The notes below the pieces were generated by a model. It was given only the letters and a program-made list of their open reading frames with translations, was not told the DNA's origin and searched no databases. 64,000 nucleotides of DNA from an uncultured Planctomycetaceae bacterium (GTDB taxonomy: Bacteria; Planctomycetota; Planctomycetia; Pirellulales; Lacipirellulaceae). The first letter of the stretch is position 1. Each line of letters begins with the position of its first letter. Below are positions 844 through 43,720 of this stretch, one piece after another. The position numbers and the translations under genes are program-made. The stretch lies in NCBI GenBank assembly GCA_964618225.1, contig CAZTWS010000003.1, forward strand, positions 57,101 through 121,100. Direction: 5' to 3'.

Positions 844-3800
844 GCTTCAATGTGGCCGCGACTGATCTGCCGCGGAAAGCAACAAATGAAAGGGCTGCCA
901 ACATGCTGCGTCTGCTTCAATGTGGCCGCGACTGATCTGCCGCGGAAAGACTAAGGAATCTATAATAAATGAATTAAATATAGAAGCTTCAATGTGGCCG
1001 CGACTGATCTGCCGCGGAAAGACTCGTGGCCGCGTTACTGCTATTAGGGAGCTTACCGCTTCAATGTGGCCGCGACTGATCTGCCGCGGAAAGCCTCTTA
1101 CGGGCAGCGACTGCCCACCTGCAGGGACGCTTCAATGTGGCCGCGACTGATCTGCCGCGGAAAGCAGTTCGTCAACGAGCAGGGGGCCACGCTGCCGCTG
1201 GCTTCAATGTGGCCGCGACTGATCTGCCGCGGAAAGCTGCGCAGGTGCCGGTTGAGTGTTGCGGAACAGGCGGCTTCAATGTGGCCGCGACTGATCTGCC
1301 GCGGAAAGTGCCCCGTGATGCGAGCAAATTACATGGCGGGGAGGCTTCAATGTGGCCGCGACTGATCTGCCGCGGAAAGAGCCCACCGCCTACGTGGTTC
1401 TGAACCACGATTTCGCCCTTCAATGTGGCCGCGACTGATCTGCCGCGGAAAGCATAAACAATTTCCAGATGTGTGGCGATGGTTAGACCCTTCAATGTGG
1501 CCGCGACTGATCTGCCGCGGAAAGCCGACGTTCCGCTTCCTGCTCTTTGCGCTGCTGCTCCCTTCAATGTGGCCGCGACTGATCTGCCGCGGAAAGAAAA
1601 TTATGGAAGCAATCTGTACATACTTCACCTCCCTTCAATGTGGCCGCGACTGATCTGCCGCGGAAAGAGAGATTCGCTGATCGACCACGAGCTAGAGCAC
1701 CTTCCTTCAATGTGGCCGCGACTGATCTGCCGCGGAAAGACCGGATTTGGTTTACTCCACGCTGCTCGCGAATCCCCTTCAATGTGGCCGCGACTGATCT
1801 GCCGCGGAAAGTTGCGGAGCATTTAATCGGTAGTGCAAGTCCTGATGCCTTCAATGTGGCCGCGACTGATCTGCCGCGGAAAGACTTCCACCACCAGAAT
1901 TACCGGAAGAGGAAGAGGAGCCTTCAATGTGGCCGCGACTGATCTGCCGCGGAAAGGTCGAGATCATTCGTCAGGCGCAGTCGAATACAATCGCCTTCAA
2001 TGTGGCCGCGACTGATCTGCCGCGGAAAGCGATGCGATTATGGAAGCCCTAGGCATGACCTCTCCGCCTTCAATGTGGCCGCGACTGATCTGCCGCGGAA
2101 AGCCGGTAATGGCGTGGATGATTGGCAATACATCGGTCCTTCAATGTGGCCGCGACTGATCTGCCGCGGAAAGAACACATCAAGCACCTGCGGCAAGAAG
2201 AAGAGCGGACCTTCAATGTGGCCGCGACTGATCTGCCGCGGAAAGAAGTACAACGGCAGAACATCTAAAACAATCCGAGACACCTTCAATGTGGCCGCGA
2301 CTGATCTGCCGCGGAAAGTGCCGGTGGATACTTGGTTCCAACGCCGCTGGCTCCCTTCAATGTGGCCGCGACTGATCTGCCGCGGAAAGCTAACCCTGCC
2401 CGCTTTCCCAGTTTGGAAAACACCCCTCCTTCAATGTGGCCGCGACTGATCTGCCGCGGAAAGGAAATCGACGCTCTGCGTGCGGAGTTGGCCGAAGTGC
2501 CTTCAATGTGGCCGCGACTGATCTGCCGCGGAAAGCGTGGTAACAAATGTACGCCAGCGAAGAACGACGACCTTCAATGTGGCCGCGACTGATCTGCCGC
2601 GGAAAGGTGCGTTCGGCGGATAGCACCCTTACCACAGAAAGGCCTTCAATGTGGCCGCGACTGATCTGCCGCGGAAAGCATATTTGAACATCGGGTGGCG
2701 TTTCTCACCAAAGCCCTTCAATGTGGCCGCGACTGATCTGCCGCGGAAAGAGTAACTGCTAGGCAAGCAAAGAAGCTTAATATCGCTCCTTCAATGTGGC
2801 CGCGACTGATCTGCCGCGGAAAGCAAAATCGGCGGGGGGCTGGTTAGCCTCGGGGCATGCCTTCAATGTGGCCGCGACTGATCTGCCGCGGAAAGCCATT
2901 CCACTCCTTCTATACGTTCAGGCTTGTCGACCTTCAATGTGGCCGCGACTGATCTGCCGCGGAAAGCTGTGCCGCGTGCCGGCGTGGTGGAAGCAAGGGC
3001 CCCTTCAATGTGGCCGCGACTGATCTGCCGCGGAAAGGACGCTAAGCAGTATGGGCTCGACTTTGAGAGCGCCTCTTCAATGTGGCCGCGACTGATCTGC
3101 CGCGGAAAGGTTTTACGGTATAGCGCATCGCCAACCAATGGCATTTCTTCAATGTGGCCGCGACTGATCTGCCGCGGAAAGGTGAAGTCCTCGGACAGAA
3201 ACGAGAACGGCAAATCTCTTCAATGTGGCCGCGACTGATCTGCCGCGGAAAGATAGCCGCAAGAGCCTGCACTACATCTATACTCTGCTCTTCAATGTGG
3301 CCGCGACTGATCTGCCGCGGAAAGGACGCTGGACAGGCCCGATGGCCCCTCACCAGCAGGTCTTCAATGTGGCCGCGACTGATCTGCCGCGGAAAGGCCA
3401 AAGGTGAAGGAAGTCTGCTTTGGTGGAGTGATTCTTCAATGTGGCCGCGACTGATCTGCCGCGGAAAGACGAAGTCGCGAGCTGAACTGCGGCGCGCCAG
3501 CCGTCTTCAATGTGGCCGCGACTGATCTGCCGCGGAAAGGCCTTCGGCATTATAAGCATCGGGCGGAGAAAAGGTTGGTCTTCAATGTGGCCGCGACTGA
3601 TCTGCCGCGGAAAGCGTAGTTGATGGCCTACTCATTGCGTTAGCGGACCGGTCTTCAATGTGGCCGCGACTGATCTGCCGCGGAAAGATTCTTCGATTGT
3701 CCCCCGTATCTCCGCGCTCGCGAGTCTTCAATGTGGCCGCGACTGATCTGCCGCGGAAAGATTCGCGAAATGCGGTATCTACGCGAGAAATTCATGTCTT

Positions 3801-6800
3801 CAATGTGGCCGCGACTGATCTGCCGCGGAAAGCGAACTCAACTGTGAACCTATCGAGATTCAAAGCGTCTCTTCAATGTGGCCGCGACTGATCTGCCGCG
3901 GAAAGTGCTGCCCGTTTTCGCAAACGATTGCACTTCCGTGTCTTCAATGTGGCCGCGACTGATCTGCCGCGGAAAGCGTAGTTGATGGCCTACTCATTGC
4001 GTTAGCGGACCGGTCTTCAATGTGGCCGCGACTGATCTGCCGCGGAAAGCTGTGGTTCTCCTTTCAAGGGTTATGCAGGGAATCGCGCGGTCTTCAATGT
4101 GGCCGCGACTGATCTGCCGCGGAAAGGCATCCGTCACACTCAGAGGCTTCAACAAACGTATCGTCTTCAATGTGGCCGCGACTGATCTGCCGCGGAAAGG
4201 TAAGCCTCGGAAATGAACTTTCTCCAAGAATCTAGTTTCTTCAATGTGGCCGCGACTGATCTGCCGCGGAAAGGTCGGCGCGAGCAAGGATGCCGACACG
4301 ATCTTCAGTCTTCAATGTGGCCGCGACTGATCTGCCGCGGAAAGATGTACAAGGTGTGGTGGAGGTCAACACGCTATCGTCTTCAATGTGGCCGCGACTG
4401 ATCTGCCGCGGAAAGGTTCCGTAGTCGTATCCTGAGTCCTGGAGTTGAAATCGTCTTCAATGTGGCCGCGACTGATCTGCCGCGGAAAGTTATCGATGAA
4501 GAATGCGAAGCTATCAACCAGTTCGTCTTCAATGTGGCCGCGACTGATCTGCCGCGGAAAGGTAAAGTGGTACCGGCAATCCAAGCCTACGTTGACGATC
4601 TTCAATGTGGCCGCGACTGATCTGCCGCGGAAAGGTTTCTAAAAATGTCCAACATCTACCCGTTCTCCCTTCTTCAATGTGGCCGCGACTGATCTGCCGC
4701 GGAAAGCTCGCCGAGCTGCGTAGCATTGCCCACGTGCAAACCTCTTCAATGTGGCCGCGACTGATCTGCCGCGGAAAGCTGGAACAACAATGTCTGTCTT
4801 ATCTTCTAAAGATGATCTTCAATGTGGCCGCGACTGATCTGCCGCGGAAAGGCAAAACTCCGGGACAAAGTGGAAGATTTAGAAGATCTTCAATGTGGCC
4901 GCGACTGATCTGCCGCGGAAAGCCGTCCAGGTACGTCACGGGCCAGCGATCTGCGAAGTTCTTCAATGTGGCCGCGACTGATCTGCCGCGGAAAGTGCGC
5001 CCATCCACCGGCTTGCCCAGAATCCCCTAACTCTTCAATGTGGCCGCGACTGATCTGCCGCGGAAAGTGCCAAACGCGGTTGAATGGCGTCAACGAACTA
5101 CTGGTCTTCAATGTGGCCGCGACTGATCTGCCGCGGAAAGCGACCAAGCCGGTTTGAGACGACACGGCACGCTTAGTCTTCAATGTGGCCGCGACTGATC
5201 TGCCGCGGAAAGTGTTAACCCTTGCGTGCCCAGGGGGTTGCGTAGCAACTCTTCAATGTGGCCGCGACTGATCTGCCGCGGAAAGAACTGTAACCGACTG
5301 GGGCCCATCCTATTCCCCATTTCTTCAATGTGGCCGCGACTGATCTGCCGCGGAAAGTGCGGTCCAATAGCTGTGTGTCGCATGCCGTCGCTGTCTTCAA
5401 TGTGGCCGCGACTGATCTGCCGCGGAAAGCTGGCCAATTACTAATCGCTTGAATCCCATGTTAACGTCTTCAATGTGGCCGCGACTGATCTGCCGCGGAA
5501 AGCCCGCCAACTGAACCGGAGCGGCCTGTGTTTTCGCGTCTTCAATGTGGCCGCGACTGATCTGCCGCGGAAAGCAAATTGACGCAAGAGCAGGCTCGCC
5601 GGGAAGTTGTGTCTTCAATGTGGCCGCGACTGATCTGCCGCGGAAAGGGATAAAACGGCAGCAACAACGCTTTGCGGCTTACAGTCTTCAATGTGGCCGC
5701 GACTGATCTGCCGCGGAAAGGCTGAACTATCGGGAATCTACACGCTCGAAGAAATGTCTTCAATGTGGCCGCGACTGATCTGCCGCGGAAAGGATGGACT
5801 TGCTTTCGTCGAACACTCGACTGTTGGTCTTCAATGTGGCCGCGACTGATCTGCCGCGGAAAGATCCCCAGCATCATGGACGGCGGAGCCAATGCCGTCT
5901 CTTCAATGTGGCCGCGACTGATCTGCCGCGGAAAGCCCGTGATCACTTCCAAGTGAAACGGGCGGACGTAAGTCTTCAATGTGGCCGCGACTGATCTGCC
6001 GCGGAAAGGTCGAGCAGCCACACGAACGCCATCACCCCGACGACTGTCTTCAATGTGGCCGCGACTGATCTGCCGCGGAAAGGGCCGTGGCGATGGAAAG
6101 TATCAACTTCCATCGCCAGTCTTCAATGTGGCCGCGACTGATCTGCCGCGGAAAGGGTGCGAGCGAGGAGGAACTGCGGCACTTACTTGAGTCTTCAATG
6201 TGGCCGCGACTGATCTGCCGCGGAAAGAACGGTTGGCCAACTATCGCTATCGATCTCGTCGAATCTTCAATGTGGCCGCGACTGATCTGCCGCGGAAAGG
6301 GCGCAATGGTTTGGTGAGGCTTACTGGAACAAAGTTTCTTCAATGTGGCCGCGACTGATCTGCCGCGGAAAGCGCCAAACAGATCGGCATAAAGTTCCTT
6401 AACTACATTCTTCAATGTGGCCGCGACTGATCTGCCGCGGAAAGGTGTTGGCACCGAAAGGTGGCGGCGGAAGTGACCGTCTTCAATGTGGCCGCGACTG
6501 ATCTGCCGCGGAAAGCTTGTTTCACTAATATTTTTTGCAAATCTTCTTGAATCTTCAATGTGGCCGCGACTGATCTGCCGCGGAAAGAAAAAAGATAGTC
6601 TGGATTTTAATTCCCCCATCTGTCTTCAATGTGGCCGCGACTGATCTGCCGCGGAAAGGATCGTGCTGGCGACCCTTATTTCTTCATGGGTCTCGTCTTC
6701 AATGTGGCCGCGACTGATCTGCCGCGGAAAGGCAGATGCTCAACCCCCACCAGTTTCGCCGCCATCGTCTTCAATGTGGCCGCGACTGATCTGCCGCGGA

Positions 6801-9800
6801 AAGGATTGCCTTCCGTATCGAATTGAACATGCGGACTGTTTCTTCAATGTGGCCGCGACTGATCTGCCGCGGAAAGGCTACGGACTCAACAGCAAGTTGC
6901 GGAAGTGTTTGGGTCTTCAATGTGGCCGCGACTGATCTGCCGCGGAAAGCATCCTGATGTCGAAAAAGCCGCTGTTGTTATCGGGTCTTCAATGTGGCCG
7001 CGACTGATCTGCCGCGGAAAGCTGTGGTCCGTGGGAAGCGGTACCATTCCTATCCCCTCTTCAATGTGGCCGCGACTGATCTGCCGCGGAAAGCTCAGAA
7101 TGAAGGCGACGAATGATATAAGAAGAGAGTCTTCAATGTGGCCGCGACTGATCTGCCGCGGAAAGCTTTCATTGATGACCCTGAGGCCCTGAAGGGCTTC
7201 ATCTTCAATGTGGCCGCGACTGATCTGCCGCGGAAAGATCGCTTTGATGCTGGAGGGGATCATTGCTAAGTGCGTCTTCAATGTGGCCGCGACTGATCTG
7301 CCGCGGAAAGGCCGCACTTCGCCGCGCGTCTGCGATTGAGGCTGCTTCTTCAATGTGGCCGCGACTGATCTGCCGCGGAAAGGCCGACGATCCGCCATGT
7401 GCCACTTGCCGCGGAACTTTCTTCAATGTGGCCGCGACTGATCTGCCGCGGAAAGGCATCGAGCGAAGGTGCTCAACTCCCACTAGCTTCGTCTTCAATG
7501 TGGCCGCGACTGATCTGCCGCGGAAAGTGTGTCGGTAGATGGCCGTGTGCGGACCAGTAGCATCTTCAATGTGGCCGCGACTGATCTGCCGCGGAAAGAC
7601 TGCGTGGTACCCACGATGGAATGTGCGGACATCTCTTCAATGTGGCCGCGACTGATCTGCCGCGGAAAGGAGCTGTAGTCCCGGATGTCACAGGACTCAT
7701 GGATTCTTCAATGTGGCCGCGACTGATCTGCCGCGGAAAGCGCCCTGGAATTCTCGCTGGAATGGCCCCGCCGCGCTCTTCAATGTGGCCGCGACTGATC
7801 TGCCGCGGAAAGCACTGCCAATGGGTAGAGCGTTGGCGAGAGCGGTCAAACTTCAATGTGGCCGCGACTGATCTGCCGCGGAAAGAAACATATGAAAAAC
7901 ACGAAGGTTCTCCGGGTTTAACACTTCAATGTGGCCGCGACTGATCTGCCGCGGAAAGATTCGCTCGCTGGGATTCGATCCAGCCAATCCAATTACTTCA
8001 ATGTGGCCGCGACTGATCTGCCGCGGAAAGAAGCCGCTAAGCGCCAAGACCGCGAACTCAACGAAACTTCAATGTGGCCGCGACTGATCTGCCGCGGAAA
8101 GCACCCGGACCTCCGTTGTACATAGCAATGTCACGATTACTTCAATGTGGCCGCGACTGATCTGCCGCGGAAAGGCAGACTGCGAAGTAATTGCCTCCGA
8201 GTGTTCCCAACTTCAATGTGGCCGCGACTGATCTGCCGCGGAAAGATGGTTTTCATAGTTAAAAAACAGTGCGGCGATTAGACTTCAATGTGGCCGCGAC
8301 TGATCTGCCGCGGAAAGGGTAAGAGAGTTGCGCCGCCGTCCGCGTGTGGAATGACTTCAATGTGGCCGCGACTGATCTGCCGCGGAAAGATCCGCGCCGT
8401 GTCACGGTCCGAGCTACGCACGCTCACTTCAATGTGGCCGCGACTGATCTGCCGCGGAAAGGCGCGGCCCTCGTAGCATGTTCCGCCCGTGAGACACACT
8501 TCAATGTGGCCGCGACTGATCTGCCGCGGAAAGGCGATATGCGGCCAACATGGGTCACGATCAATGCCAAACTTCAATGTGGCCGCGACTGATCTGCCGC
8601 GGAAAGCGCAGTGCAGACACAGCTTAACGTCGGTGCGGTCGAACTTCAATGTGGCCGCGACTGATCTGCCGCGGAAAGCGCCACCCCGATAAGCTGCTGC
8701 TTTCGGATTTGATCGTACTTCAATGTGGCCGCGACTGATCTGCCGCGGAAAGCTACCAGAACGACAAAGGCGAAGCATTGATTTCAATACTTCAATGTGG
8801 CCGCGACTGATCTGCCGCGGAAAGGCCCCGACATCGCTTATTCGTTGCTCCTGGAGGGGCCACTTCAATGTGGCCGCGACTGATCTGCCGCGGAAAGCTA
8901 CACCATCGACTTCCTCACGCATTTGCACATGTTACTACTTCAATGTGGCCGCGACTGATCTGCCGCGGAAAGAATTACGTGGCTTTCCGTGGATCGCTGT
9001 AGCGTTGCACTTCAATGTGGCCGCGACTGATCTGCCGCGGAAAGAAGACTCGGCGCAGAACACCAAGAAAGCGTTATTGACTTCAATGTGGCCGCGACTG
9101 ATCTGCCGCGGAAAGTATTCCACCGTGACTCCCGCAGGATCAATCCCCGGTGACTTCAATGTGGCCGCGACTGATCTGCCGCGGAAAGGTAATAGCGGCG
9201 TGGTGTTTGTGCGCGTGTCTGAAAACTTCAATGTGGCCGCGACTGATCTGCCGCGGAAAGGTTATGAGCCTCGCCGAGATGTTTGTTGACGACCGTACTT
9301 CAATGTGGCCGCGACTGATCTGCCGCGGAAAGACCTCCCGTTTGTGCGGTGGAAGATCAAGCCGCCAACACTTCAATGTGGCCGCGACTGATCTGCCGCG
9401 GAAAGGGAATGATTTGTGTTGCCATTGGTTATTCAAACAGAGCACTTCAATGTGGCCGCGACTGATCTGCCGCGGAAAGGTGATAGCAGCCGCAACACCA
9501 GACGCGACGACTAAGACTTCAATGTGGCCGCGACTGATCTGCCGCGGAAAGTGATACTTGCCATCAATTACCGCGTCTCTGAATTGACTTCAATGTGGCC
9601 GCGACTGATCTGCCGCGGAAAGCCGGGAACGCGTTGCCACCAGCCATTACGCAATGCGACTTCAATGTGGCCGCGACTGATCTGCCGCGGAAAGACCTCG
9701 TCGGTATGCGGATGCGTTTTCTACCCGCTCACTTCAATGTGGCCGCGACTGATCTGCCGCGGAAAGGGTTCGAGGACCACGTCAGCGATTTGCTGATCTT

Positions 9801-12800
9801 CACTTCAATGTGGCCGCGACTGATCTGCCGCGGAAAGGCGCTCAGCCAAATAGGCTGCTTGGCGGTCGTCAACACTTCAATGTGGCCGCGACTGATCTGC
9901 CGCGGAAAGAAGCCCTACAAAAGTTCGCTGCAACCGGCGAAGTGACTTCAATGTGGCCGCGACTGATCTGCCGCGGAAAGGCGCCGATCCCGACTCGCTA
10001 CCCAAAGTCAAAGAGTTACTTCAATGTGGCCGCGACTGATCTGCCGCGGAAAGGTGGTGTGCAACAAATGCTGCACCGCATGGTTATTACTTCAATGTGG
10101 CCGCGACTGATCTGCCGCGGAAAGGCGCTCTTGCACCCACAGTTTCCAGTAGTCCGCGTCACTTCAATGTGGCCGCGACTGATCTGCCGCGGAAAGCTCC
10201 TCCGGATACGCCATCCCCGTTGCCGTCCGACCCACTTCAATGTGGCCGCGACTGATCTGCCGCGGAAAGCCTGGTCGACCCATTGGCCATGCCCCAATGC
10301 AGGCCCGACTTCAATGTGGCCGCGACTGATCTGCCGCGGAAAGCGCAATGGTTTGGTGAGGCTTACTGGAACAAAGTTGAACTTCAATGTGGCCGCGACT
10401 GATCTGCCGCGGAAAGCGCCCGGTGAACCAGGAGGGGGAGCCGGGCGTTTGGACTTCAATGTGGCCGCGACTGATCTGCCGCGGAAAGCAAGGTAGCCCC
10501 AAACGGGTCCACGTGTCCAGGACACTTCAATGTGGCCGCGACTGATCTGCCGCGGAAAGCTGCCAGGTGGTGAGGCTGCCCTTGCTGCCGAAAAAACTTC
10601 AATGTGGCCGCGACTGATCTGCCGCGGAAAGAAATTACGGCAACCACACTGGCTACCAACAGGTGTTACTTCAATGTGGCCGCGACTGATCTGCCGCGGA
10701 AAGCCTTTTATTTACAAAAGGATTTATATGACCAGCAAACTTCAATGTGGCCGCGACTGATCTGCCGCGGAAAGTCAAACCAACGGTTGAAGAAGTCACC
10801 GCCTACTGCACCACTTCAATGTGGCCGCGACTGATCTGCCGCGGAAAGGATGCGCCACCACGCAGGGGGGGTGGTTTTTTTCCAAGCACTTCAATGTGGC
10901 CGCGACTGATCTGCCGCGGAAAGCCACCCCCATATCGCAATGGGCCGTGGGGTAGTGCTACTTCAATGTGGCCGCGACTGATCTGCCGCGGAAAGACGTG
11001 CCATCTACGGCATCCCGATTAAAACCGACTTTGACTTCAATGTGGCCGCGACTGATCTGCCGCGGAAAGGCTGCGGGCGGTATCCGGGTGCGACGCCAGG
11101 CCATTACTTCAATGTGGCCGCGACTGATCTGCCGCGGAAAGAGGGCCTGCCGTTCACCTTCTGGGTTGTTCGTGCTGACTTCAATGTGGCCGCGACTGAT
11201 CTGCCGCGGAAAGAGGCGTTGTTTCCTTAACATCGACATTGCTAGCTCCTAACTTCAATGTGGCCGCGACTGATCTGCCGCGGAAAGTGGGTGGAGTCTT
11301 CGAGAACGGCACCTTTACTGAAGACTTCAATGTGGCCGCGACTGATCTGCCGCGGAAAGGAAAATCATTCGCACAATTTATGCTTGACGCAAAAAAGACT
11401 TCAATGTGGCCGCGACTGATCTGCCGCGGAAAGCGATTTATGATACGGGTTTAAATTGCTGGGATCATCACTTCAATGTGGCCGCGACTGATCTGCCGCG
11501 GAAAGAGCTCATAAACACCTCCTCCACTCTATATAACAATACTTCAATGTGGCCGCGACTGATCTGCCGCGGAAAGTCGTGTCATGGTGAGCGATCCCCG
11601 ACCAATCGAGCACTTCAATGTGGCCGCGACTGATCTGCCGCGGAAAGCCAGCACTGCTGATCCATGGAGAATTAGTTCCGATAAACTTCAATGTGGCCGC
11701 GACTGATCTGCCGCGGAAAGCTTCATTGCTCCATGGCAAGACACCGCCCTCAGCGTACTTCAATGTGGCCGCGACTGATCTGCCGCGGAAAGTTCCATCT
11801 CCTCTCGGCGCTCGACTGCAGCACCTGACTTCAATGTGGCCGCGACTGATCTGCCGCGGAAAGGTAGGTTTGCGACAGATTCAACGCGCGGCTAAGCTCT
11901 ACTTCAATGTGGCCGCGACTGATCTGCCGCGGAAAGACTTCTAGCGTCCACTGTGTACGGACATTTTTAGGGCACTTCAATGTGGCCGCGACTGATCTGC
12001 CGCGGAAAGTTGCCGATGCCGTGTCATTGGACGATGCCAGAGATACTTCAATGTGGCCGCGACTGATCTGCCGCGGAAAGGGTTAGACACCCTCGACTCA
12101 GTTGTTATTGTGACTACTTCAATGTGGCCGCGACTGATCTGCCGCGGAAAGGCCGCCTCCCACGAGCAGTAGAACCGTCACCGAAAGACTTCAATGTGGC
12201 CGCGACTGATCTGCCGCGGAAAGCAATTGGGCAATGGTGGTAGCTCATGTTCATCACTTTCACTTCAATGTGGCCGCGACTGATCTGCCGCGGAAAGGTG
12301 GCCTCAGTCGGGTGGCCGTCGATTTGTCAGCAAACTTCAATGTGGCCGCGACTGATCTGCCGCGGAAAGGCACATGCCTTGAGATGCGCTAAGTTGCGAG
12401 TGTCGACTTCAATGTGGCCGCGACTGATCTGCCGCGGAAAGCCAGAGAAGTAAAGCAAACCCAAGTCACCCTTGCGACTTCAATGTGGCCGCGACTGATC
12501 TGCCGCGGAAAGGTCGTAGCCGCAGTGAATCACCTCGAACCTGTCCAGACTTCAATGTGGCCGCGACTGATCTGCCGCGGAAAGGGCCAAGGCAGCTTGA
12601 GTTCTTTCGATGGCCATGATTCACTTCAATGTGGCCGCGACTGATCTGCCGCGGAAAGGGAAGCTGATCATTGGCGGTGACAAAGCGGACAAACTTCAAT
12701 GTGGCCGCGACTGATCTGCCGCGGAAAGTCCTCGGACCTGATATGACCCATCATGGAAAGGTAACTTCAATGTGGCCGCGACTGATCTGCCGCGGAAAGG

Positions 12801-13233
12801 CTCCAAACAAGAGGGGAAGCTCGCCCGGCATGTAAGACTTCAATGTGGCCGCGACTGATCTGCCGCGGAAAGATACCGCCACTCGGCTTTGTACCCCGCA
12901 CCGTCCGGACTTCAATGTGGCCGCGACTGATCTGCCGCGGAAAGATCCGGTCTGGTGGCTAGGCTTGGCATATCGGACCAACTTCAATGTGGCCGCGACT
13001 GATCTGCCGCGGAAAGGTCCGCGAAGATTACATGCGGGACGAGTGCCAGCGCGACTTCAATGTGGCCGCGACTGATCTGCCGCGGAAAGCGAGCGGCTAA
13101 TGAAGACGGGCCGCAAATGGTTCGAACTTCAATGTGGCCGCGACTGATCTGCCGCGGAAAGCTCCACCCCTTGGCGACTTCCAGCCAATAGGTGTTCACT
13201 TCAATGTGGCCGCGACTGATCTGCCGCGGAAAG
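844..13233 (-). CRISPR. CRISPR array with 172 direct repeats of 36 nt and 171 spacers of 34-41 nt. Repeat on the minus strand is 5'-CTTTCCGCGGCAGATCAGTCGCGGCCACATTGAAGN-3'.
   Basis: I located every CTTCAATGTGGCCGCGACTGATCTGCCGCGGAAAG core by hand, from the first at 845 to the last at 13199-13233, with a period of 70-77 nt. No core mismatch was seen. The minus-strand orientation is inferred from the ATTGAAG-type 3' end typical of type I repeats and from co-orientation with the cas operon. The repeat has an internal 5-bp CCGCG/CGCGG stem. Confidence 0.97.
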
Positions 13234-13449
13234 CCCTCTCTCGTAAGTTCTGAATTGCCAAGGAGCGCAGATCAAACATGCGAGCGGCCCGGACCGCAGC
13301 CGACAGTTCAATGTCATAACACGTTGAGGGGGCATTGGAAAGCATTACGGGATAACAAGTTCTGGGCCGCGAGCGGTGCCCGGGGATTTCACTGCACCTC
13401 GCTGCTCGCGAGAGTCAAACTGACGAAAAAACAATAGCGACAGACACCG
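13234..13449 (-). promoter_or_regulatory. Putative CRISPR leader between the cas4-cas1 stop and the first repeat
   Basis: This is 216 nt of non-coding sequence directly upstream of the array in the inferred transcription direction. No promoter hexamers were confidently identified. It contains a weak repeat-like relic at 13305-13342. Confidence 0.5.
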
Positions 13450-15225
13450 CTATCGAGTAACGAAGACCGGATACGAGGCGATTTCCCCGGTCAATACTCG
13501 GGCCAGCAATCGGGCTTGAATCTCCAACAGCCGACGATAATTCACACGATACCCAAACAATGGATGCGTGACTAGAGTATCCATTCGTTGTTCATACGCT
13601 CTAAAAAACGACTTACGGCCCTCTGGCCGCAGCGCCACGGCGTCGCCGGTGCGGATGAAGTCGGCCGGCGTGATCATACGTGTATTGATCGCCGACAGCA
13701 CTGCGGAATCCGCGATCAATGGTCGAAACGGCTCCATGAGATCGAGGGCGAGCGCTGCCCGACCGAAACGTGGCTGATGGTAGAATCCAAGAAATGGATC
13801 GAAGCCGACCGCGTGGCAGACGATCGTTAGGTCCTTTGCCAACACACTGTAAGCCAACGATAGTAAAGCATTCACGGCATCGCGCGGCGGGCGACGATTG
13901 CGGCGGAGAAAATCGAACGTGAACTCGGCGGCACCGTTGGCCGGTGTGCCGTCCGCCGCTTCGGCCTTAATCATGCCCGCGAAGTTCTCGAAGTAGATCT
14001 TGGCTGCGAAGCCCTCGATGCCCAGCAATTCTTCGATCGATGAAGCGCGCTCGGAATCCTGTTGCATGCACTTTAACAGGGCGATTGGATGAGCGGGCGG
14101 CTCAACATGATTTCGCTGCAACATGGTGCGTTGATTGCGAATCTTTCCAGACACCAACATGCGAGCTAGTCGCAGGCAAAACGATGGCACATCGGCTAGT
14201 CGAAATTGATCGCGACGCAAATAAATATTGCGGACACCAAGGCCATGAGTCACTCCGTAAAACCAACCGCCCATCGAAAAGTACGCGATCGGTACTTCAC
14301 CTTCACACAATGCCTGAACAGCCTGCGTGGAGAGCTGAATGTTGCCGAATAGATTGACCTGGCAGGTTTCGCCAATACGCACCTCCTGGACAACCTTTTC
14401 TTTCTCCTTCACTTTCAGCACGTTGCCGGACTTACCAACGTATAGGCCCTGAGCATTCAAATACAGTGGCCTCAAATCGTCGCGGGCAGCAACCAACCGG
14501 CGCGGCTCATGACCGTTTTCTATGCCGGCATTGGAGGACAGCCCTATGTCGAATAGCACTCGTTGCGGCGATTGGCCGGCAACGGTGCCAGCCGAGCGAC
14601 AACTCCACGTTTCATCAGGCAGACAAATCCCGACGAGCGAACAACGCGGGCATTTGGGACTGTCAACGAGCGGCGGTGGGATTTGATCGGATGCGGCCGC
14701 TGCCCGGGCGTCGGCCAGGGCTTGCAAGGTTTGCGAGATCATTGCCTCGTCCATCGGCACGCGCACTCGCTGCTTGGTCGCGACATAATAGATGACTCCT
14801 TCTTCGCAGGTGTAGCCATTATCGCGCAACACCAGCGCCTGTGCGGCTAACTGTACGCGGTCCGCGTCCCAAGCTTCGAGCTCTCCGGTATCGGAATTCT
14901 TTCGCGGTGCGCCACGTTTATAATCTACCGGAGTGGCCGTGCGATCCGAAACTTCGATCAGGTCGAGCTTCGCAATCAAACCGTGCGTATCGCTCGAAAG
15001 CGTGACCGATCGTGAGTGAAGCTTGTCTTCGGCGGAGAGCTCAGCGGCCGGCACCAACTCGTCCTGTCGGTCGTCGAGCTTCGCATGCCGCAGCGCGCCT
15101 TCGGTGGTTTCGCGATTATGGACAAATACGCCTTCGACCCACTCGTAGTAAAACAGCCGAGGGCAGTAAACGTACTCATTAAGCATTCGTGCCGGCAGAT
15201 AGTCTGGCGTTTCGGCTTTGATCAT
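13450..15225 (-). CDS. cas4-cas1: Cas4-Cas1 fusion protein (adaptation integrase with N-terminal RecB-type Cas4 nuclease)
   Basis: 591 aa. The N-terminus has YVYCPRLFYYEW plus a C-terminal Cys cluster CPRCSLVGIC (Cas4 Fe-S cluster pattern). The C-terminal ~380 aa shows Cas1-like blocks (IRNQRTMLQRN, RRNRRPPRDAVNALLSLAYSVL, LGFYHQPRFGRAALALDLMEPFRP). This fusion is a hallmark of type I-U/I-G. Confidence 0.93.
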   Translation of the reverse strand: MIKAETPDYLPARMLNEYVYCPRLFYYEWVEGVFVHNRETTEGALRHAKLDDRQDELVPAAELSAEDKLHSRSVTLSSDTHGLIAKLDLIEVSDRTATPVDYKRGAPRKNSDTGELEAWDADRVQLAAQALVLRDNGYTCEEGVIYYVATKQRVRVPMDEAMISQTLQALADARAAAASDQIPPPLVDSPKCPRCSLVGICLPDETWSCRSAGTVAGQSPQRVLFDIGLSSNAGIENGHEPRRLVAARDDLRPLYLNAQGLYVGKSGNVLKVKEKEKVVQEVRIGETCQVNLFGNIQLSTQAVQALCEGEVPIAYFSMGGWFYGVTHGLGVRNIYLRRDQFRLADVPSFCLRLARMLVSGKIRNQRTMLQRNHVEPPAHPIALLKCMQQDSERASSIEELLGIEGFAAKIYFENFAGMIKAEAADGTPANGAAEFTFDFLRRNRRPPRDAVNALLSLAYSVLAKDLTIVCHAVGFDPFLGFYHQPRFGRAALALDLMEPFRPLIADSAVLSAINTRMITPADFIRTGDAVALRPEGRKSFFRAYEQRMDTLVTHPLFGYRVNYRRLLEIQARLLARVLTGEIASYPVFVTR

Positions 15226-15313: not shown

Positions 15314-15604
15314 TCAAACGACAATGCACGGCGCATTGATCGGCGAATAAGGTTGCCCAAGCGCGGCAATCACGCGCTCGCCGCGACCTTCGGTCGGCCC
15401 AAGGTCGACGAACAGCACTTGGTCTTCGTTGTGCTTGATGATCTCAGAAAGCGTATGCCGACATCGCGCCAAATCGATCGGCGTAAACTGGCACTCGAAA
15501 ATGGAGTACTGCAAGTGGTCGCCAAAATCGCGCATGGTCTTGTAGACCTTGCGAAGACGTTTGTCGTTGCGGATGTCGTAGCAGACAAGAAAAGTGTTTC
15601 GCAT
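15314..15604 (-). CDS. cas2: Cas2
   Basis: 96 aa. FLVCYDIRNDKRLRKVYKTMRDFGDHLQYSIFEC matches the canonical Cas2 N-terminal beta-alpha pattern. It lies next to cas4-cas1. Confidence 0.9.
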   Translation of the reverse strand: MRNTFLVCYDIRNDKRLRKVYKTMRDFGDHLQYSIFECQFTPIDLARCRHTLSEIIKHNEDQVLFVDLGPTEGRGERVIAALGQPYSPINAPCIVV

Positions 15605-15887: not shown

Positions 15888-17441
15888 TTATGGACCTACC
15901 CGTTCCACCGCCGCCATCAGGCCGAAGCCACAATGGCGACCGGCGCCGAGAGCCAAAGGGCCGGGGACCTGCAATCCATCGTTGAATCGCAATGTCAAAT
16001 GAACTGCCGTTTGATTGAGCAAATAGCCGGGGCGAATGTAACCCGTTGGTCGCCCCTGTCGATCGTATTTGTGGGCAGAGAACGATTTTGGAAATCTCGA
16101 AAAGGCGTTCCATTCAAATTCGCATGGTTGCTCGAGGCCGGACTGTTGCAAGGCTTTGCGGATGAGCGACCGGGTCTTCTCGGGCTTGTGGTCGTCGTGG
16201 CCAGGAAGGATGACTGGCGTCACGCTTGCCCAAGTGGCCGAAGTACGGAGATACCCGGCGCGGACACCGTCCCGGCGATGGTCGTCGATGCGTTCGAGGT
16301 GCGTGCCCGGCGGAAGCGTCGTGTTGGGTAGGGGGTTGAGGAGCGCGCCGTCGATCTGGCGTGCAAGATGTTCGAGCCAGGTGTCGTCGCCGAGAGGCGC
16401 AACGATCATAACGCGGCGAACGCCGGGGTCAGTGTTGGGATTGCCAATCGACTGCAGCGGAATGTAGGAAAACTGTGTGTGCGGAATCCCTTGCGATTTG
16501 TCCTGCGGCGACTGGTGCCCCGACACGTACGCGCGAAGCCACTCGGCCGAGTTTCGCCCGCACAATTCTCGCGGTGGATTGCGCTCCATCGCCCCAATCG
16601 CCAGATGACGAACCATTCCGGCGATGTGGATGAGCTTGGATGGGGGATAGGAAACGGTGTCGTCATTTTCGTCAATGAGCTTGAAAACTGCGTGGGGACG
16701 GGGAGCGGGATCGCTGTCGTGGCGGTAACAAATCTGATCCATCGCGCTCAACGGAGGAACGGGCGTCCAGTCGCCGTTGATCAAGCGATTGAGGAACTTG
16801 TCATGTCGCGCAGTAAGGGCGTCGAGCGAGCCATTGCGATGAACGCGAAGTCGCCTGCCGCCGCGCGGCGTGGGCATCCATCTCTCGCCGTTGGGTTGCC
16901 TTGATGCAGACTCGACAAGCGTTGCGTCCGCGATGACCTGATCGATCCCCCACCCGAGGCAGTGGATCGAGCGGGCGGAGGGGCGAATAGCATTCAGTAA
17001 TTCGGTCGGATCGGCATTGGTTGCGTCGAGTAGGTATAGGTAGTGGATTGCGGGGAGTTCGTCGCCGATAGTTTCAATAAGGTGTGGGCGGAAATCCTTT
17101 TCGATACGGTGAGAGGCAATGCTGGCATCGGCATTGCCACGGTTCCAGGCGGCCGTCACGAGGTCGGTCTGATTATGAGGCACGTACGCGCGATGACCGA
17201 TAGTGCTGAGAGTGGCGCGCGGCGCAATGATAGAAGGCCGCAACACTTCGAGCGTTTGAAGGGCCGATCGCACGTCGGGCGGCAGAGGCTTGCCGCGCAT
17301 GCACAGACAGGCGGCGTTGAGCAGCGCCTGAAACGCCCGCATCGGCGACGGCGGCCATTCGGGGTCGTCACCGTCGGCGCGGCCATGATAAACAGGATAT
17401 GGCTGGATGAAGCGGAAGCTGATGCAGAGAATATTCGACAT
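15888..17441 (-). CDS. csb2: Csb2 family protein (type I-U/I-G Cas5u-Cas6u fusion)
   Basis: 517 aa. The N-terminal block ISFRF..YHGR....EWPPSPMRAFQALLNAA resembles the Csb2 signature (EWPPSP.R...AL). There is a C-terminal glycine-rich RAMP loop LGAGRHCGFGLM. The start lies 2 nt after the csb1 stop, with GGAG inside the csb1 end. Confidence 0.8.
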   Translation of the reverse strand: MSNILCISFRFIQPYPVYHGRADGDDPEWPPSPMRAFQALLNAACLCMRGKPLPPDVRSALQTLEVLRPSIIAPRATLSTIGHRAYVPHNQTDLVTAAWNRGNADASIASHRIEKDFRPHLIETIGDELPAIHYLYLLDATNADPTELLNAIRPSARSIHCLGWGIDQVIADATLVESASRQPNGERWMPTPRGGRRLRVHRNGSLDALTARHDKFLNRLINGDWTPVPPLSAMDQICYRHDSDPAPRPHAVFKLIDENDDTVSYPPSKLIHIAGMVRHLAIGAMERNPPRELCGRNSAEWLRAYVSGHQSPQDKSQGIPHTQFSYIPLQSIGNPNTDPGVRRVMIVAPLGDDTWLEHLARQIDGALLNPLPNTTLPPGTHLERIDDHRRDGVRAGYLRTSATWASVTPVILPGHDDHKPEKTRSLIRKALQQSGLEQPCEFEWNAFSRFPKSFSAHKYDRQGRPTGYIRPGYLLNQTAVHLTLRFNDGLQVPGPLALGAGRHCGFGLMAAVERVGP

Positions 17442-17443: not shown

Positions 17444-18610
17444 TTACTCCGGCTTGGGTTCCGCGGCAGCCTTGGCAGTCTTCTTACGCGTCGCCTTCAC
17501 GTCGCCTTCACCAGTGATGTCTTTCTTCGCAAGGTTGGAGTCGAACTTCACCGATTGTGCTTCGCCGATGCCGAATTCCTTCGCTGCCTGCTTAGCAAAA
17601 GCAATGGCCTGTTCGTGCGTGAGGTTAAAATCCTCGCGCGAGCCATCGGCATTGACCAGCGTGACCTTGCGCGGGTTGTTGATATCTGGCACCAAATTGC
17701 AGCCTTGGCGGAGATACGCCTGCGGCGGTGCGGTGAGTGCGACGAGTGAAAGGCCAAGCACGTACCTGCGGAGTGCAAGGTTTTGTTTTGCGTCGTCGCC
17801 TGCCGAGAGCAAGCGGAGAGCGGCGAGACTGAGAGTAACGTCGCGACGGATGCCGCCATTGGCGATCACGCCACCGTGGGAGCCAGTCGCAGGAACATGA
17901 ATGAAGCCGCGTTCGGCATAAGCGTCTTTGGTCTTTTTGTCAGCCGTGTCTTCTAACAATCCGAGCCCGATATAGTCGGCCGACGGATTAAACTGTGCGG
18001 AACGTGTCAGCTTCTGGACGTTAAATGCGCGAATCGTTGACGCAACAAGGCGAGGTAGTTTGGCCTGCGTGTCGCGCGAATCCCACGCGCCGAAGACTAG
18101 CGAAGTTGGGGCTACCTTCGCCATCTGGAGCGCGTTGCCTTGCAGCACAGCTTTGAACGCGTCTTGTAGAGTCTTCTGGAGCGGCGTGCAACGGACAATC
18201 GCATCGCCCGCGCGGTGGCCGGCTTCGAGCAAATTCACAGACTTTTCGCCGGCGGTGATCACAACCTGCGGCACGAGGCCCGCATACTCCGGCTTGGCAA
18301 AGATGGGCTCGATACGATTGGCTTGCGAACCAACGCTATCAACAAGGCAGACGTTCCTTTCGCTGATCTTCGCCTCTACCGTGACTTTCTTGGACCCATC
18401 TTTATCAACCTCGACGATAGTCGTTGTTGTCTCCGGCGGCGGGTCAATATTGTACCCGCCCGGAAACACCTTCTTGTCCTCAGCAGCGGCAAAGGTTGCG
18501 GGAAAGATTACCCCGTCCGCGCCTTCGACGGGCACGAGCGGCTCACGGATGACGATCGCGGCAGTGAAGTCGCTCGTTAGCCAATTGTCGTACTTGTTCA
18601 GGTCACTCAT
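17444..18610 (-). CDS. csb1: Csb1 family protein (type I-U/I-G Cas7u backbone subunit)
   Basis: 389 aa counted from the internal ATG at 18610 (MSDLNKYDNW...), which is preceded by GGAGAA. The longer track ORF starting at 18703 overlaps the upstream gene. The LVPVEGADGVIFPATFA block and the position between the Cas8u-like gene and csb2 fit Csb1. Confidence 0.8.
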   Translation of the reverse strand: MSDLNKYDNWLTSDFTAAIVIREPLVPVEGADGVIFPATFAAAEDKKVFPGGYNIDPPPETTTTIVEVDKDGSKKVTVEAKISERNVCLVDSVGSQANRIEPIFAKPEYAGLVPQVVITAGEKSVNLLEAGHRAGDAIVRCTPLQKTLQDAFKAVLQGNALQMAKVAPTSLVFGAWDSRDTQAKLPRLVASTIRAFNVQKLTRSAQFNPSADYIGLGLLEDTADKKTKDAYAERGFIHVPATGSHGGVIANGGIRRDVTLSLAALRLLSAGDDAKQNLALRRYVLGLSLVALTAPPQAYLRQGCNLVPDINNPRKVTLVNADGSREDFNLTHEQAIAFAKQAAKEFGIGEAQSVKFDSNLAKKDITGEGDVKATRKKTAKAAAEPKPE

Positions 18611-19487
18611 TACGTTCTCCTTGGAATGGAATAGCAGGCAAGAAATTTTTGAGGTATTTGGTTCGATAGAGCAATTTGAACTCCTGCAACAATTCATCGC
18701 CAATGTCTATCGCGCCGCATGCGACTGCCGACGCGACGGATGGCGACAATGGACAGCGCCAGGCAGCGTACACGAAGCGGTTTTCTCGCGGAATCTCGCG
18801 CGGACGGAATCGTTGAAGCCCGATGAAGCAGAGGAACTCAAGGGCAGGTTTGCAAGTGCCTTCAATACGCGTCGCTTCACTGCCCGCAAGTGGATCAAAG
18901 CTGAAGCCAATGTCGAGCGCTGAGCCTTGCCCGCCAAGATCGGAATCGAAGTTGAACGGCAGACCGATGCCGCGTGCGTTACTCCACAGCGATGAATCGG
19001 ATTCGCTTATCGTACCAGCCATTCCGCGATGCATGGCTCTGGCAATATCCAACACGGACTGCTGCCCCGCCCATGTCTTGAATCGGGATCCGCCAGCAAA
19101 CTCGTCGCAAAACCAGTCGATGAGAAACGAGACGGTGCCAGTGAGTATGATCGGCAATTCACGACGGAGCGATTCAAGCAACTTCTTTTCGTTTTCCAGA
19201 CCAAGCACCGCTTCACGCTGTTTTTTCTTCATTGCCGATAATTCTTCGAGCCGCGCGTTTTGCACCGGTGTCATCGTGTTGACTACGGTGGATTCCGTGA
19301 GCGCTTTTAGCAGCGTGGATAGCGAACATTCCTGAGGGCCTGAGATCAGAAAGTGGTCGTCATTAAACCACCCCTCCGCCCCCCGCCACAGCCGATCCGC
19401 CAACTCCAACAACCCGCAGCAGGCGAAGAACTGGCCGGGGTTGGTCAGGTCGACGGGGACCCTAATGTTGGGTTCCTTGTTGCTCAT
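18603..19487 (-). CDS. Small Cas8u-class large-subunit candidate (Csb3-like), 294 aa
   Basis: I place the start at ATG 19487 (MSNKEPNIRVPVDLTNPGQFFACCGLLELADRLW), preceded by GGGAGG. It overlaps the upstream stop as ATGA. The NPGQFFACCGLLELADRLW block is what I recall for the Csb3 family, and the gene sits in the slot normally held by Csx17/Cas8u2. The family assignment is not verified. Confidence 0.55.
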   Translation of the reverse strand: MSNKEPNIRVPVDLTNPGQFFACCGLLELADRLWRGAEGWFNDDHFLISGPQECSLSTLLKALTESTVVNTMTPVQNARLEELSAMKKKQREAVLGLENEKKLLESLRRELPIILTGTVSFLIDWFCDEFAGGSRFKTWAGQQSVLDIARAMHRGMAGTISESDSSLWSNARGIGLPFNFDSDLGGQGSALDIGFSFDPLAGSEATRIEGTCKPALEFLCFIGLQRFRPREIPRENRFVYAAWRCPLSPSVASAVACGAIDIGDELLQEFKLLYRTKYLKNFLPAIPFQGERNE

Positions 19488-20533
19488 TTTGCGCCTCCCT
19501 CTTCGGCCTTCGCGCTGGCGGCCCAGTCGGCGGTACGGACAAGGGATTCGAAGTAGGCTAGGCCCCACCGGCCATACTTTCGCTGGAGGCGGGCGAAGCG
19601 TCTTAGGACTTCGAGTGGCTGTTGACTTGCTGATTCTCCGCAGTGATTGTCGTCGAGACATTCATCCGGTGTGAAATGCGGCCGCGCCCGACCGTGGTGC
19701 GCGGAAATCAGGTGCAGAACCAGCTCGCGTGAATCGTCTGAGAGAGCTTTGAATGCCGGAAGGGTTTGGATGTCCAGCATCGATCCGAATTCGTGCCGGT
19801 ATGTTGAGCGTTCAATCCTTCCGCGTCGCTTGCCTGACTTAGCCCACGCCTTGGTCTGGGGATAGCCGGTATTGCCGATGCCACGCTGCCATCGCTCGCG
19901 TTCCTTGCCCAGATCGTGAAACTCCGCCGCGAGGATGACGGCTTTGCGTAATTCTGGGTCGAGAGAAAGTCCCAACACGAACTGTGTTGCCTCTTTTTTT
20001 GCGTCGCTTAGGTGTGGGACCAGTTCGTAGTGGGGCTTTCTACTTCGGGCATCGGTGTCGGCTGCCAAGATGCGGACGAACCAATGCCACATCCTGATCG
20101 GCTCGCTCTCTTCATCGTCAGTATCTGTCAATACGATCTGGGAGACGAGCTTCATCTTGGTGGGCGGATCAACTTCGTCTTCTGGCATCTTCCATTGACG
20201 TTCCCGCATTGGGCCCTTGTCGTCAGACCACTGATCAGAAACGTCATCATCGATAGCGGCAGGTGGCTCACCTTGTTTGGGTGACGGCGGAAAATCACCA
20301 TCGAGCATGCCTTGCTTGGTCAGTCCGCCGATGTCATGCGGAAGCAAGATAGTTTTGCTTCGGAGTCGCGATTCGGCCTGTTTGTTCTCCCAATTCGTGA
20401 GTTCTGCTATATGAGGCAGAACTTCGACCTCGCCCTGCTCATCTACAATCCACGCGGGCCGTTTCGGATGTCGCGCGGCCAGCTTGACGAACTCCTTCCA
20501 TACCACATGTGCGACGCCGAGGCGCGACGCCAC
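19484..20533 (-). CDS. cas3: Cas3 HD-nuclease domain protein without a helicase domain (C-terminal part of a type I-G Cas3, or a stand-alone Cas3'')
   Basis: 349 aa with a GTG start. The C-terminal ~180 aa carries the ordered HD motifs: VPHLSD, FHDLGK, YRHEFGS, SAHHGR, RTADWAAS. No Walker A / DEAD / helicase motifs are present. The reading frame is closed by a stop only 5 codons upstream (TAG at 20549-20551). Confidence 0.75.
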   Translation of the reverse strand: MASRLGVAHVVWKEFVKLAARHPKRPAWIVDEQGEVEVLPHIAELTNWENKQAESRLRSKTILLPHDIGGLTKQGMLDGDFPPSPKQGEPPAAIDDDVSDQWSDDKGPMRERQWKMPEDEVDPPTKMKLVSQIVLTDTDDEESEPIRMWHWFVRILAADTDARSRKPHYELVPHLSDAKKEATQFVLGLSLDPELRKAVILAAEFHDLGKERERWQRGIGNTGYPQTKAWAKSGKRRGRIERSTYRHEFGSMLDIQTLPAFKALSDDSRELVLHLISAHHGRARPHFTPDECLDDNHCGESASQQPLEVLRRFARLQRKYGRWGLAYFESLVRTADWAASAKAEEGGAK

Positions 20534-20747: not shown

Positions 20748-20829
20748 GCGGAGGGCATGGGACTCGAACCCACAACCGGTTTCCCGGCACCACATTTCCA
20801 GTGTGGCCGCTAGCCATTCGCTTACCCTC
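20748..20829 (-). tRNA. tRNA-Ser(GGA)-like gene, class II with a long variable arm and no encoded CCA
   Basis: Folded by hand. The 7-bp acceptor is GGAGGGT/GCCCTCC. The anticodon stem is CCACA/TGTGG with loop CTGGAAA (anticodon GGA). The variable arm is CCGG-GAAA-CCGG. The T arm is GTGGG-TTCGAGT-CCCAT. The D stem pairs poorly (2 canonical pairs), so tRNAscan confirmation is needed. Confidence 0.7.
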
Positions 20830-21145
20830 CGAATGGAAGACTTAAGTCCTTATCTTAACACCATTTGGGCCGATGTCTACCGCAAGCCTCCCTACCGCTG
20901 TTTGCCGCAACGACACTTGGATTAACGCCTATTTGCAGTCCTGTGCGATTGAGGGACCGGCTCGATTCGCACGACCATCACCAACGCAATCCGTGAACAC
21001 GAACGGCACTGCTCGCACGGGGCTTTGCGGCAGCCACACTAGGCATCGAAAAATCCCAACCGCAGCAGCCACCTAGCGCTCAACAACACAAGCGTACGCG
21101 CACCGACAAAGAAGAGGATAAGAAGTTAAGTGAGTGGTGTGTGAG

Positions 21146-34112: not shown

Positions 34113-34550
34113 CCGCGGTTTCTCCAATGTTCCCCAACCAGTTATGCCCTAAAGCTAGAGTAAGCATCCACGACAAAAGCGCCAATTCAACGACCGCCAC
34201 TCGATAGGAAACTAGAGGAAGTTTTGCCACCAACTTAGAACAGGCCAGCATTTAGCTGCGCGAATGCGCGAGCATGGTGCGCGATCCTAGCCAATCACTC
34301 GAAAATGTCTGAAAAAAACACGCTCCATCCCACCGCCCACCTGGCGTGATTTGCTTGCCCAAATAGGGCGTGCGGAACATAATCAAATTACGGGACAGGG
34401 TTGCGATGAGAGAGGCTACTTCAATCGCATGCCGCGGGCGACTCTTAACCGGCAGTGCCACACATCTGCTCTCCCCAGGGTCGCCTAACATCCCCCCCTT
34501 CAACCGCGCGTGCCGTCTACGATTAGATTGAAGTAACAGAGGAGAGAAGA

Positions 34551-38947: not shown

Positions 38948-38949
38948 CT

Positions 38950-40842: not shown

Positions 40843-40843
40843 C

Positions 40844-43648: not shown

Positions 43649-43720
43649 TTCGTCTTTTTAACTTCCCGCAACCAACGGGTTCGGAGTCAACTTCCCCACA
43701 GGCGCATTGAAAACAACACC

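Follow-up and report, generated by a model that had tools for sequence, protein, structure and literature searches.

Within a 64,000-nt stretch of contig CAZTWS010000003.1 (assembly GCA_964618225.1, positions 57,101 to 121,100 of the forward strand), from an uncultured Planctomycetaceae bacterium and hereafter called the window, the minus strand of a Planctomycetota chromosome carries a CRISPR array that belongs to a type I-G (formerly I-U) CRISPR-associated (Cas) system. Reading toward the array, the operon consists of a cas3 remnant, cas8g2, cas7g, csb2, cas2 and a cas4/cas1 fusion, followed by the leader and then the array itself (Table 1). The array is conspicuous for a single base: the repeat is invariant at all positions but the last one on the transcribed strand, and this last base is different in each of four uninterrupted blocks that follow one another from the trailer to the leader.

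Table 1. Features of the type I-G locus, in window coordinates
Feature	Coordinates	Strand	Description
CRISPR array, type I-G	844..13233	minus	172 repeats of 36 nt, 171 spacers; exact extraction
Oldest block, trailer end	844..1379	minus	repeats 1-8 (8); transcribed C, plus strand G; C is the family consensus
Second block	1417..3037	minus	repeats 9-31 (23); transcribed G, plus strand C
Third block	3074..7812	minus	repeats 32-97 (66); transcribed A, plus strand T
Youngest block, leader-proximal	7850..13233	minus	repeats 98-172 (75); transcribed T/U, plus strand A
Leader	13234..13449	minus	216 bp separating the first repeat from the cas4/cas1 stop codon; alignment with 13 relatives
cas4g/cas1g fusion	13450..15225	minus	591 aa, full length; NF049935, 751 bits (cut-off 560), model 1-546 of 546
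cas2	15314..15604	minus	96 aa; TIGR01573; 78-92% identity to relatives' Cas2
csb2 (Cas5-Cas6 fusion, crRNA-processing subunit)	15888..17441	minus	TIGR02165, 230 bits, above cut-off
cas7g / csb1	17444..18703	minus	TIGR02570, above cut-off
cas8g2 (large subunit)	18603..19661	minus	TIGR04106, 289 bits, above cut-off
cas3g remnant	19484..20533	minus	349 aa; C-terminal third only: end of helicase and HD domain
tRNA-Ser(GGA)	20748..20830	minus	215 bp upstream of the cas3 remnant

Scripted extraction from the plus strand recovered 172 exact copies of the 35-nt core CTTCAATGTGGCCGCGACTGATCTGCCGCGGAAAG, the first starting at position 845 and the last ending at 13233, and no degenerate copy with up to six substitutions was found outside the array on either strand of the window. 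As transcribed from the minus strand, the repeat reads CTTTCCGCGGCAGATCAGTCGCGGCCACATTGAAG followed by one variable base. The original prediction, made from the sequence alone, had counted 172 copies with 35 of 36 positions fixed; the extraction bears this out, and tabulating the base that precedes the core exactly reproduced the four predicted intervals (G, C, T and A on the plus strand), with no mixed block. In terms of the transcribed strand, the blocks from trailer to leader carry C (8 repeats), G (23), A (66) and T/U (75), with 100% uniform bases inside the blocks and zero interleaving between them. Labels in the proportions 8/23/66/75 can be arranged in 10^82.2 ways, and perfect blocks would arise by chance with P ~24/10^82. 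The same prediction had excluded recombinational shuffling, which holds for events that interleave the blocks, but not for deletions and within-block events, which would be invisible in this record.

The spacers are 34-41 nt long (mode 36), the three that lie at block boundaries measuring 37, 36 and 37 nt. All 171 are unique except for one identical pair, spacers 39 and 44 (sp39 and sp44), and the array is therefore not a repeat-expansion artefact. The two identical spacers (3615-3651 and 3977-4013) look like one target site sampled repeatedly. No spacer matches the rest of the window, that is, there is no self-targeting within it.

Four independent lines of evidence, namely the position of the array, the leader, the fold of the repeat and the side on which the protospacer adjacent motif (PAM) lies, agree on the transcribed strand and the leader side. 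In 50 of 80 related type I-G loci, the array lies ~200 bp downstream of cas4/1 in the same orientation as here, and the leader shares the motifs GCTCGCA, TTGGCAATTCAG and ACTTACGA with the 13 aligned relatives. The 36-nt repeat of 50 related arrays reads CTTTCC...ATTGAAGC. When folded, the minus-strand repeat RNA forms a 7-bp hairpin (nt 5-11/18-24) followed by the 12-nt tail CCAC|AUUGAAGN. Csb2 of type I-G is known to cut 4 nt 3' of the stem, leaving an 8-nt 5' handle on the CRISPR RNA (crRNA) (PMC9638904), a geometry with which both this repeat and those of the 50 related arrays agree, giving a predicted handle AUUGAAG-N. From the fold and the 8-nt rule it follows that the variable base is repeat position 36, or position -1 of the crRNA handle, as had been claimed from the sequence alone and as the cas/leader side and the PAM side also indicate. 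The Rfam family CRISPR-DR16 matches the minus strand only, C-type repeats scoring 26.6 bits and G-type repeats 20 bits, both short of the gathering score. At the end of the cas operon, a terminator-like hairpin and its T-run (13455-13432, minus strand) overlap the cas4/1 stop codon and the cas-proximal end of the leader, implying that the array has its own promoter in the leader. A scan of the leader found no sigma-70 consensus promoter, although planctomycete promoters may differ.

Many of the spacers could be assigned to one phage. Logan contigs of public metagenome runs were aligned to the array, and a 34,458-bp contig in runs X1 and X2 matched spacers of three blocks, G, A and T (named here, as throughout, by the transcribed base), at least 18 in all and on both strands. 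At least 12 spacers of the leader-proximal T block match the co-occurring phage contig, the depth of which is 20-37x compared with ~6-12x for the host flanks (about 2-4 times higher). Further phage contigs of 8.6-11.7 kb are present in the same two runs. A composite peptide query assembled from all open frames led to a 20.9-kb stretch of a closely related NCBI contig (L081; CAYNOT010000025.1, 46.4 kb), which encodes RecT, a YqaJ exonuclease, an HNH protein, a phage metallopeptidase and a thymidylate kinase, and to which 9 spacers map. A two-protein composite query intended to extend the phage contig returned only 69%-identical relatives. Megablast of the array against GenBank phages, exact scans of IMG/VR for sp158 and the boundary spacers sp97, sp31 and sp8, and a comparison of the phage fragment with metagenome contigs of the Joint Genome Institute (JGI) each gave no match.

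For 13 protospacers, read 5' to 3' in the crRNA sense with flanks taken from the Logan contigs and L081, we could read the target bases that precede the spacer start. These are TTC for sp12, sp72, sp105, sp121 and sp133, TTG for sp75, sp84 and sp166, TTA for sp20 and TTT for sp158, while sp64, sp81 and sp119 show NTT, a register slipped by +1. Thus, a 5'-TTN PAM, the published one for type I-G, lies on the side of the variable base, with TT at -3/-2 in 10 of the 13 protospacers and in the +1 register in the other three. The target base beside the spacer equals the variable base of the adjoining repeat in only 2 of 13 cases (~3 expected by chance), and PAM position -1 varies freely within blocks, from which it follows that the terminal base passes on together with the repeat and does not have the PAM as its template. 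A single protospacer region yielded two spacers, sp76 in the A era (6300-6336) and, with a 2-nt shift, sp132 in the T era (10344-10380), and each of them stands behind the repeat base of its own era. Position 36 is copied, not PAM-derived, and dispensable for adaptation in this type I-G system. In E. coli type I-E, the last repeat nucleotide is derived from the PAM, being the G of AAG (Swarts 2012, PMC3338789; Diez-Villasenor 2013, PMC3737337). The likeness to type I-E, and to type I-C as proposed, is that the last repeat base, next to the PAM-proximal end of the spacer, behaves unlike the rest of the repeat; unlike in type I-E, where this base arrives with each spacer, here it is inherited with the repeat, independent of PAM -1.

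Comparison with related arrays gives the series a direction. Position 36 is C in ~45 of 50 related arrays from Planctomycetota, Verrucomicrobiota, Acidobacteriota and Bifidobacterium, and the block farthest from the leader carries this consensus base, which fits polarised growth with the ancestral state kept at the trailer. The blocks are contiguous and ordered, with the ancestral base at the trailer and derived bases toward the leader, the pattern by which the propagation of repeat variants is recognized. Position 36 is also the repeat position most often polymorphic among the relatives (4 of 46 arrays compared with a mean of 0.5 per internal position, Poisson p = 0.002), followed by position 1 (3 arrays). 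Full replacements occur elsewhere, by T in L025 and L062 and by G in L069, with distal C remaining in L062 and L069.

Repeat variation of other kinds was also seen among the relatives. Position 1 is variable in the 12 leader-proximal repeats of the L033 array and a constant C in the remaining 23, which are distal; in L027, 18 successive repeats share a 3-nt variant at positions 26-28; and the columns flanking the repeats of L070 show repeated strings, which suggests segmental duplication of spacer-repeat units. Compost runs X3, X4 and X7 contain a sister strain with a ~98% identical cas1, other spacers and ~50 repeats of the ancestral C type. In this strain (X3/X7), position 1 of the repeat is either T or C, and the leader-proximal repeat begins with a different base (13233 G>A).

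We consider it very probable that the blocks are explained by changes in the leader-proximal repeat that were propagated by repeat duplication. New spacers would enter at the leader end, where Cas4/1-Cas2 would make staggered cuts at both ends of the leader-proximal repeat; gap filling would then duplicate this repeat, and its position-36 base would pass to both daughters and hence to every later repeat. Under this scheme, the ancestral C would have changed to G, then to A and then to T, with 23, 66 and 75 units laid down after each change. Either simple point mutation or inaccurate integration at the spacer side could have produced each change. It is established that Cas1-Cas2 cuts the leader-proximal repeat at its two 5' ends, with gap repair then duplicating it, and that rulers from internal motifs measure out the cut sites (Goren 2016, PMC5039180; Wang 2016, PMC4872114); in type I-G, it is to the spacer side of the repeat that the PAM end becomes joined, and there integration by Cas4/1-Cas2 in vitro is 60-70% site-accurate compared with 80-90% at the leader side (PMC10274657); this imprecision might provide a site-specific mutational input at position 36. 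The changes may have persisted through weak constraint, given that PAM -1 is N and that, in the published structure of type I-G Cascade, there is no Cas5 subunit on the handle, and Csb2 does not bind it (PMC9638904).

The principle is already known: polarised growth and duplication of the first repeat create blocks of variants, with the ancestral form at the trailer. As in the ruler or anchor model (Goren 2016, PMC5039180; Wang 2016, PMC4872114), every later repeat takes over a change that arises in the first one, and it is distance, rather than which base stands at the end, that fixes the cut sites. What is unusual here is that one normally conserved base is serially replaced through all four nucleotides. 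Known variant propagation differs in this respect, as here the same position has changed three times while the 35 others are invariant in 172 copies. The polarised growth that had been read from the sequence alone is supported by the family-consensus C at the trailer end, the leader on the cas side, the TTN PAM beside the variable base and the absence of PAM templating.

Several observations weigh against this account, at least in its simplest form. The C at position 36 is kept in ~90% of related arrays across several phyla; the position is therefore not simply neutral, selection or a mechanism normally keeps C, and simple neutrality does not explain three serial replacements. Moreover, there are 3 changes at one site and 0 in 6,020 other repeat bases, a coincidence of site with probability (1/36)^2 under uniform mutation, and a site-specific mechanism beyond a uniform mutation process is therefore likely. 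The simplest slip model (in-slip), in which repeat base 36 is supplied by the first base of the spacer, was rejected because the boundary spacers should then be short and are not (37, 36 and 37 nt). We likewise rejected the insertion of A before a retained C with copying of a 37-nt repeat, because a 36-nt ruler would drop the C after one round. The three block junctions are without confirmation from independent reads. Finally, cas3 is truncated at its 5' end, and present-day interference is therefore not to be assumed.

Independent reads support the interior of two blocks. A 101-nt unitig of public metagenome run X5 is identical to 2068-2168, a unit of the block with plus-strand C, and a unitig of run X6 is identical to 4244-4344, a unit of the block with plus-strand T; the two runs are unrelated, and each unit includes the block-specific base. 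No public sequencing run that holds 6900-8800 was found, nor were sister arrays that share spacers found in public runs or in JGI metagenome contigs (a 30-nt repeat core query had no match in JGI). In runs X1 and X2, both the trailer flank and the leader/cas1 region are present at 100% identity, but none of the window's spacers is represented by a unitig. A 1,660-nt contig of X2 joins window positions 600-844 to 13199-13720, that is, the trailer flank, a single C-type repeat and the leader; it reflects either the collapse of the array in k=31 de Bruijn assembly or a real variant without an array, living alongside the phage.

These data bear on other explanations of the blocks. Homologous recombination at the identical cores might have replaced the leader-proximal part of the array three times from strains with other terminal bases, making the boundaries recombination joints rather than in-situ mutations. 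The identical 35-nt core offers recombination sites throughout, recombination between arrays has been documented (PMC4524480), sister strains in other repeat states exist (the C-type compost strain of X3/X7, with different spacers), and a strain with identical flanks is represented in X2 by the contig that runs from the trailer flank through one repeat to the leader. We nonetheless regard this origin as unlikely: it only shifts the problem, given that the donor arrays would each require that mechanism of propagation as well, a search of public runs and JGI contigs gave no donor array of G, A or T type with different spacers, the G-, A- and T-block spacers target the same phage, and an ancestral C at the trailer end is the prediction of in-situ change.

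An assembly chimera, in which several co-existing strains with different terminal bases had their arrays chained via the common repeat, would fit the three junctions that lack independent reads and the evident tendency of short-read de Bruijn assemblies to collapse this array, as in the X2 contig. Such a chimera seems very improbable, as the 171 spacers are unique apart from one duplicate, units within two blocks are confirmed in unrelated runs, the order of blocks agrees with the ancestral state of the family, and there is one leader and one trailer only, the joining of four arrays without their own leaders and trailers being itself unlikely. Least credible of all, to the point that we set it aside, is a terminal base derived from the PAM with each spacer, the blocks then marking three switches of PAM preference: despite the consensus C being the last base of the commonest PAM here (TTC, 5 or 6 of 13), the PAM-derived C proposed for type I-C repeats by Vink et al. 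(PMC8482600) and singleton position-36 variants in L058 and L062 that look per-spacer, the PAM -1 base is C, G, T or A regardless of block, with fewer matches than chance, and the blocks of 23, 66 and 75 units are fully uniform.

Apart from the terminal base itself, the first base of the spacers shows an irregularity. Spacers of the A era start with C in 36 of 66 cases, against a background of 0.27 (binomial p = 2e-6), compared with 7 of 23 in the G era and 22 of 75 in the T era. A-era spacers with a leading C whose older neighbour also starts with C have a mean length of 36.83 nt, compared with 35.92 nt for those after a non-C neighbour and 36.17 nt for non-C spacers (p = 0.016 and 0.022); the corresponding G-era spacers measure 37, 37 and 37 nt against ~36, and the T era shows no effect. 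Targets were available for several A-era spacers. In sp64, the leading C is unmatched, as the phage has T, which puts TT[T] in register, and in sp81 the leading C falls at PAM -1 of TTC; both have an older neighbour that starts with C, as does sp72, in which the leading C is canonical. In sp84, the older neighbour of which starts with another base, the leading C is likewise canonical. The dependence of the leading C on the neighbour is weak (23/36 compared with 13/29, p = 0.10), and the effect is absent from 38 related arrays, which show 296 same-base neighbours against 265 expected and no length effect. In run X3, the repeat unitig of the sister strain is fixed at 37 nt (...GAAGCG) at a depth ~50 times that of the genome, and the first spacer base is G in 4 of 4 units recovered.

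One tentative explanation, which we think has a minority chance of being right, is that the type I-G repeat-spacer boundary is plastic, with a spacer-side cut placed by a 36-nt ruler and a preference for the ancestral terminal C. After the loss of C from position 36, a newest spacer that happens to begin with C would sometimes have this base read as the repeat end and co-duplicated, and the next spacer would then gain a non-templated leading C; such imprecision would also turn position 36 into a mutational hot spot and thereby explain three replacements at one site. The A-era excess of C, the longer spacers with C after C, the sp64 and sp81 targets and the 37-nt unit of X3 speak for such plasticity, and the weak neighbour dependence, the canonical C of sp72 and the lack of effect in the T era and in the 38 related arrays against it. 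Co-duplication of just any first spacer base was rejected, as bases other than C are not passed on (4 of 29 in the A era) and the related arrays show no effect. Alternatively, the leading C could come from slipping of Cas4 at TTC PAMs. Slipping at the PAM end occurs in Cas4-dependent adaptation (PMC5416893, PMC10274657), and the +1 register of sp64, sp81 and sp119 (3 of 13 protospacers) and the 2-nt shift of sp132 relative to sp76 resemble it, but slipping alone does not explain why the leading base is specifically C, nor why the effect is limited to the A era, and perhaps the G era, and absent from the T era.

As to the function of the changed handle, all four bases are tolerated for spacer integration, because 23, 66 and 75 later units were added behind the three derived ones. 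The original prediction that this position tolerates all four nucleotides thus stands for integration, whereas for crRNAs with a non-C base at handle position -1 we infer that they function. Mismatches between the spacers and the L081 phage cluster in the PAM-proximal seed, with 7 of 13 in positions 1-8 (p = 0.012), and crRNAs with non-C handles are therefore suggested to have exerted immune pressure, the mismatch pattern being suggestive of a trace of escape from that pressure, non-C handles included. Many spacers from three eras are directed against one phage, which is typical of primed adaptation.

The cas genes identify the system well. The effector genes csb2, cas7g/csb1 and cas8g2 are present, with no separate cas6 or cas11 and no further cas open reading frame between them, and the nearest Cas4/1 relatives come from metagenome-assembled genomes of Pirellulales and Planctomycetaceae (72-86% identity). 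The same gene set, cas3g, cas8g2, cas7g (csb1), csb2 and the cas4/cas1 fusion plus cas2, is known from type I-G of Geobacter sulfurreducens (GSU0051-0058), Thioalkalivibrio sulfidiphilus and Methanosarcina barkeri (Cas4/1). Known type I-G systems and this locus are also alike in the 36-nt repeat ending in ATTGAAG-N, the hairpin base 4 nt before the cut, the 8-nt handle, the 5'-TTN PAM and the joining of the PAM end of the spacer to the spacer side of the repeat. This locus differs from known type I-G systems in the placement of cas2 upstream of cas4/1, in the reduction of cas3 to a 5'-truncated remnant, in a terminal repeat base that, though C in nearly all relatives, has been exchanged three times, and in the unusual length of the array (172 repeats).

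A full-length Cas3g, typical of type I-G, is lacking: the remnant covers only positions 547-854 of the 854 of the model, with 183 bits against a cut-off of 400, and aligns to residues ~540-880 of Cas3g homologues, which are mostly 860-940 aa long (~880 aa). No match to the N-terminal (helicase) part of Cas3g was found anywhere in the window, and the 5' two-thirds of the gene are missing. To judge by its sequence, this cas3g is a decayed remnant of the cas3 of the family and not a sign of another subtype; apart from it, the locus is an ordinary type I-G system. With adaptation and effector genes that look intact, the locus may still acquire spacers but no longer degrade targets. The gene for tRNA-Ser(GGA) marks the edge of the locus and is a possible site of rearrangement. 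The adaptation module (Cas2, Cas4/1) is 74-92% identical to that of relatives L002-L016, whereas the effectors (Csb2, Cas7g, Cas8g2, Cas3) are only 31-65% identical, a gap that would suggest module shuffling or much faster evolution of the effectors.

Elsewhere, the window contains DUF1559/H-X9-DG pilin-like genes and, at 31332-49872, a chromosomal cluster for peptidoglycan or muropeptide turnover, unrelated to the array finding, with two GH25 proteins carrying PATR repeats, GHL10, GH3, an MFS transporter, an M14 carboxypeptidase and a fusion of a beta-lactamase-like domain and an S11 carboxypeptidase with a peptidoglycan-binding domain. The pilin-like genes, like the nearest Cas4/1 relatives, assign the locus to Planctomycetota, probably to Pirellulales.

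The array does not change the understanding of how CRISPR arrays grow; it is a tidy natural experiment and not a new kind of system. As such, it amounts to natural mutagenesis of one type I-G repeat position, in which spacers continued to be integrated whichever of the four bases stood at handle position -1 (23 to 75 later acquisitions each); crRNA function was probably retained as well. This tolerance fits published features of type I-G, namely a PAM that ignores position -1 and a Cascade without a Cas5 clamp on the handle, and for the engineering of type I-G guides the data suggest a free choice of this base. A question raised for types I-C and I-E is answered for this type I-G system: the terminal repeat base is copied and not imported with the PAM. 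In practical terms, the blocks serve as a relative clock built into a 171-spacer record of meetings with a phage that can be identified.

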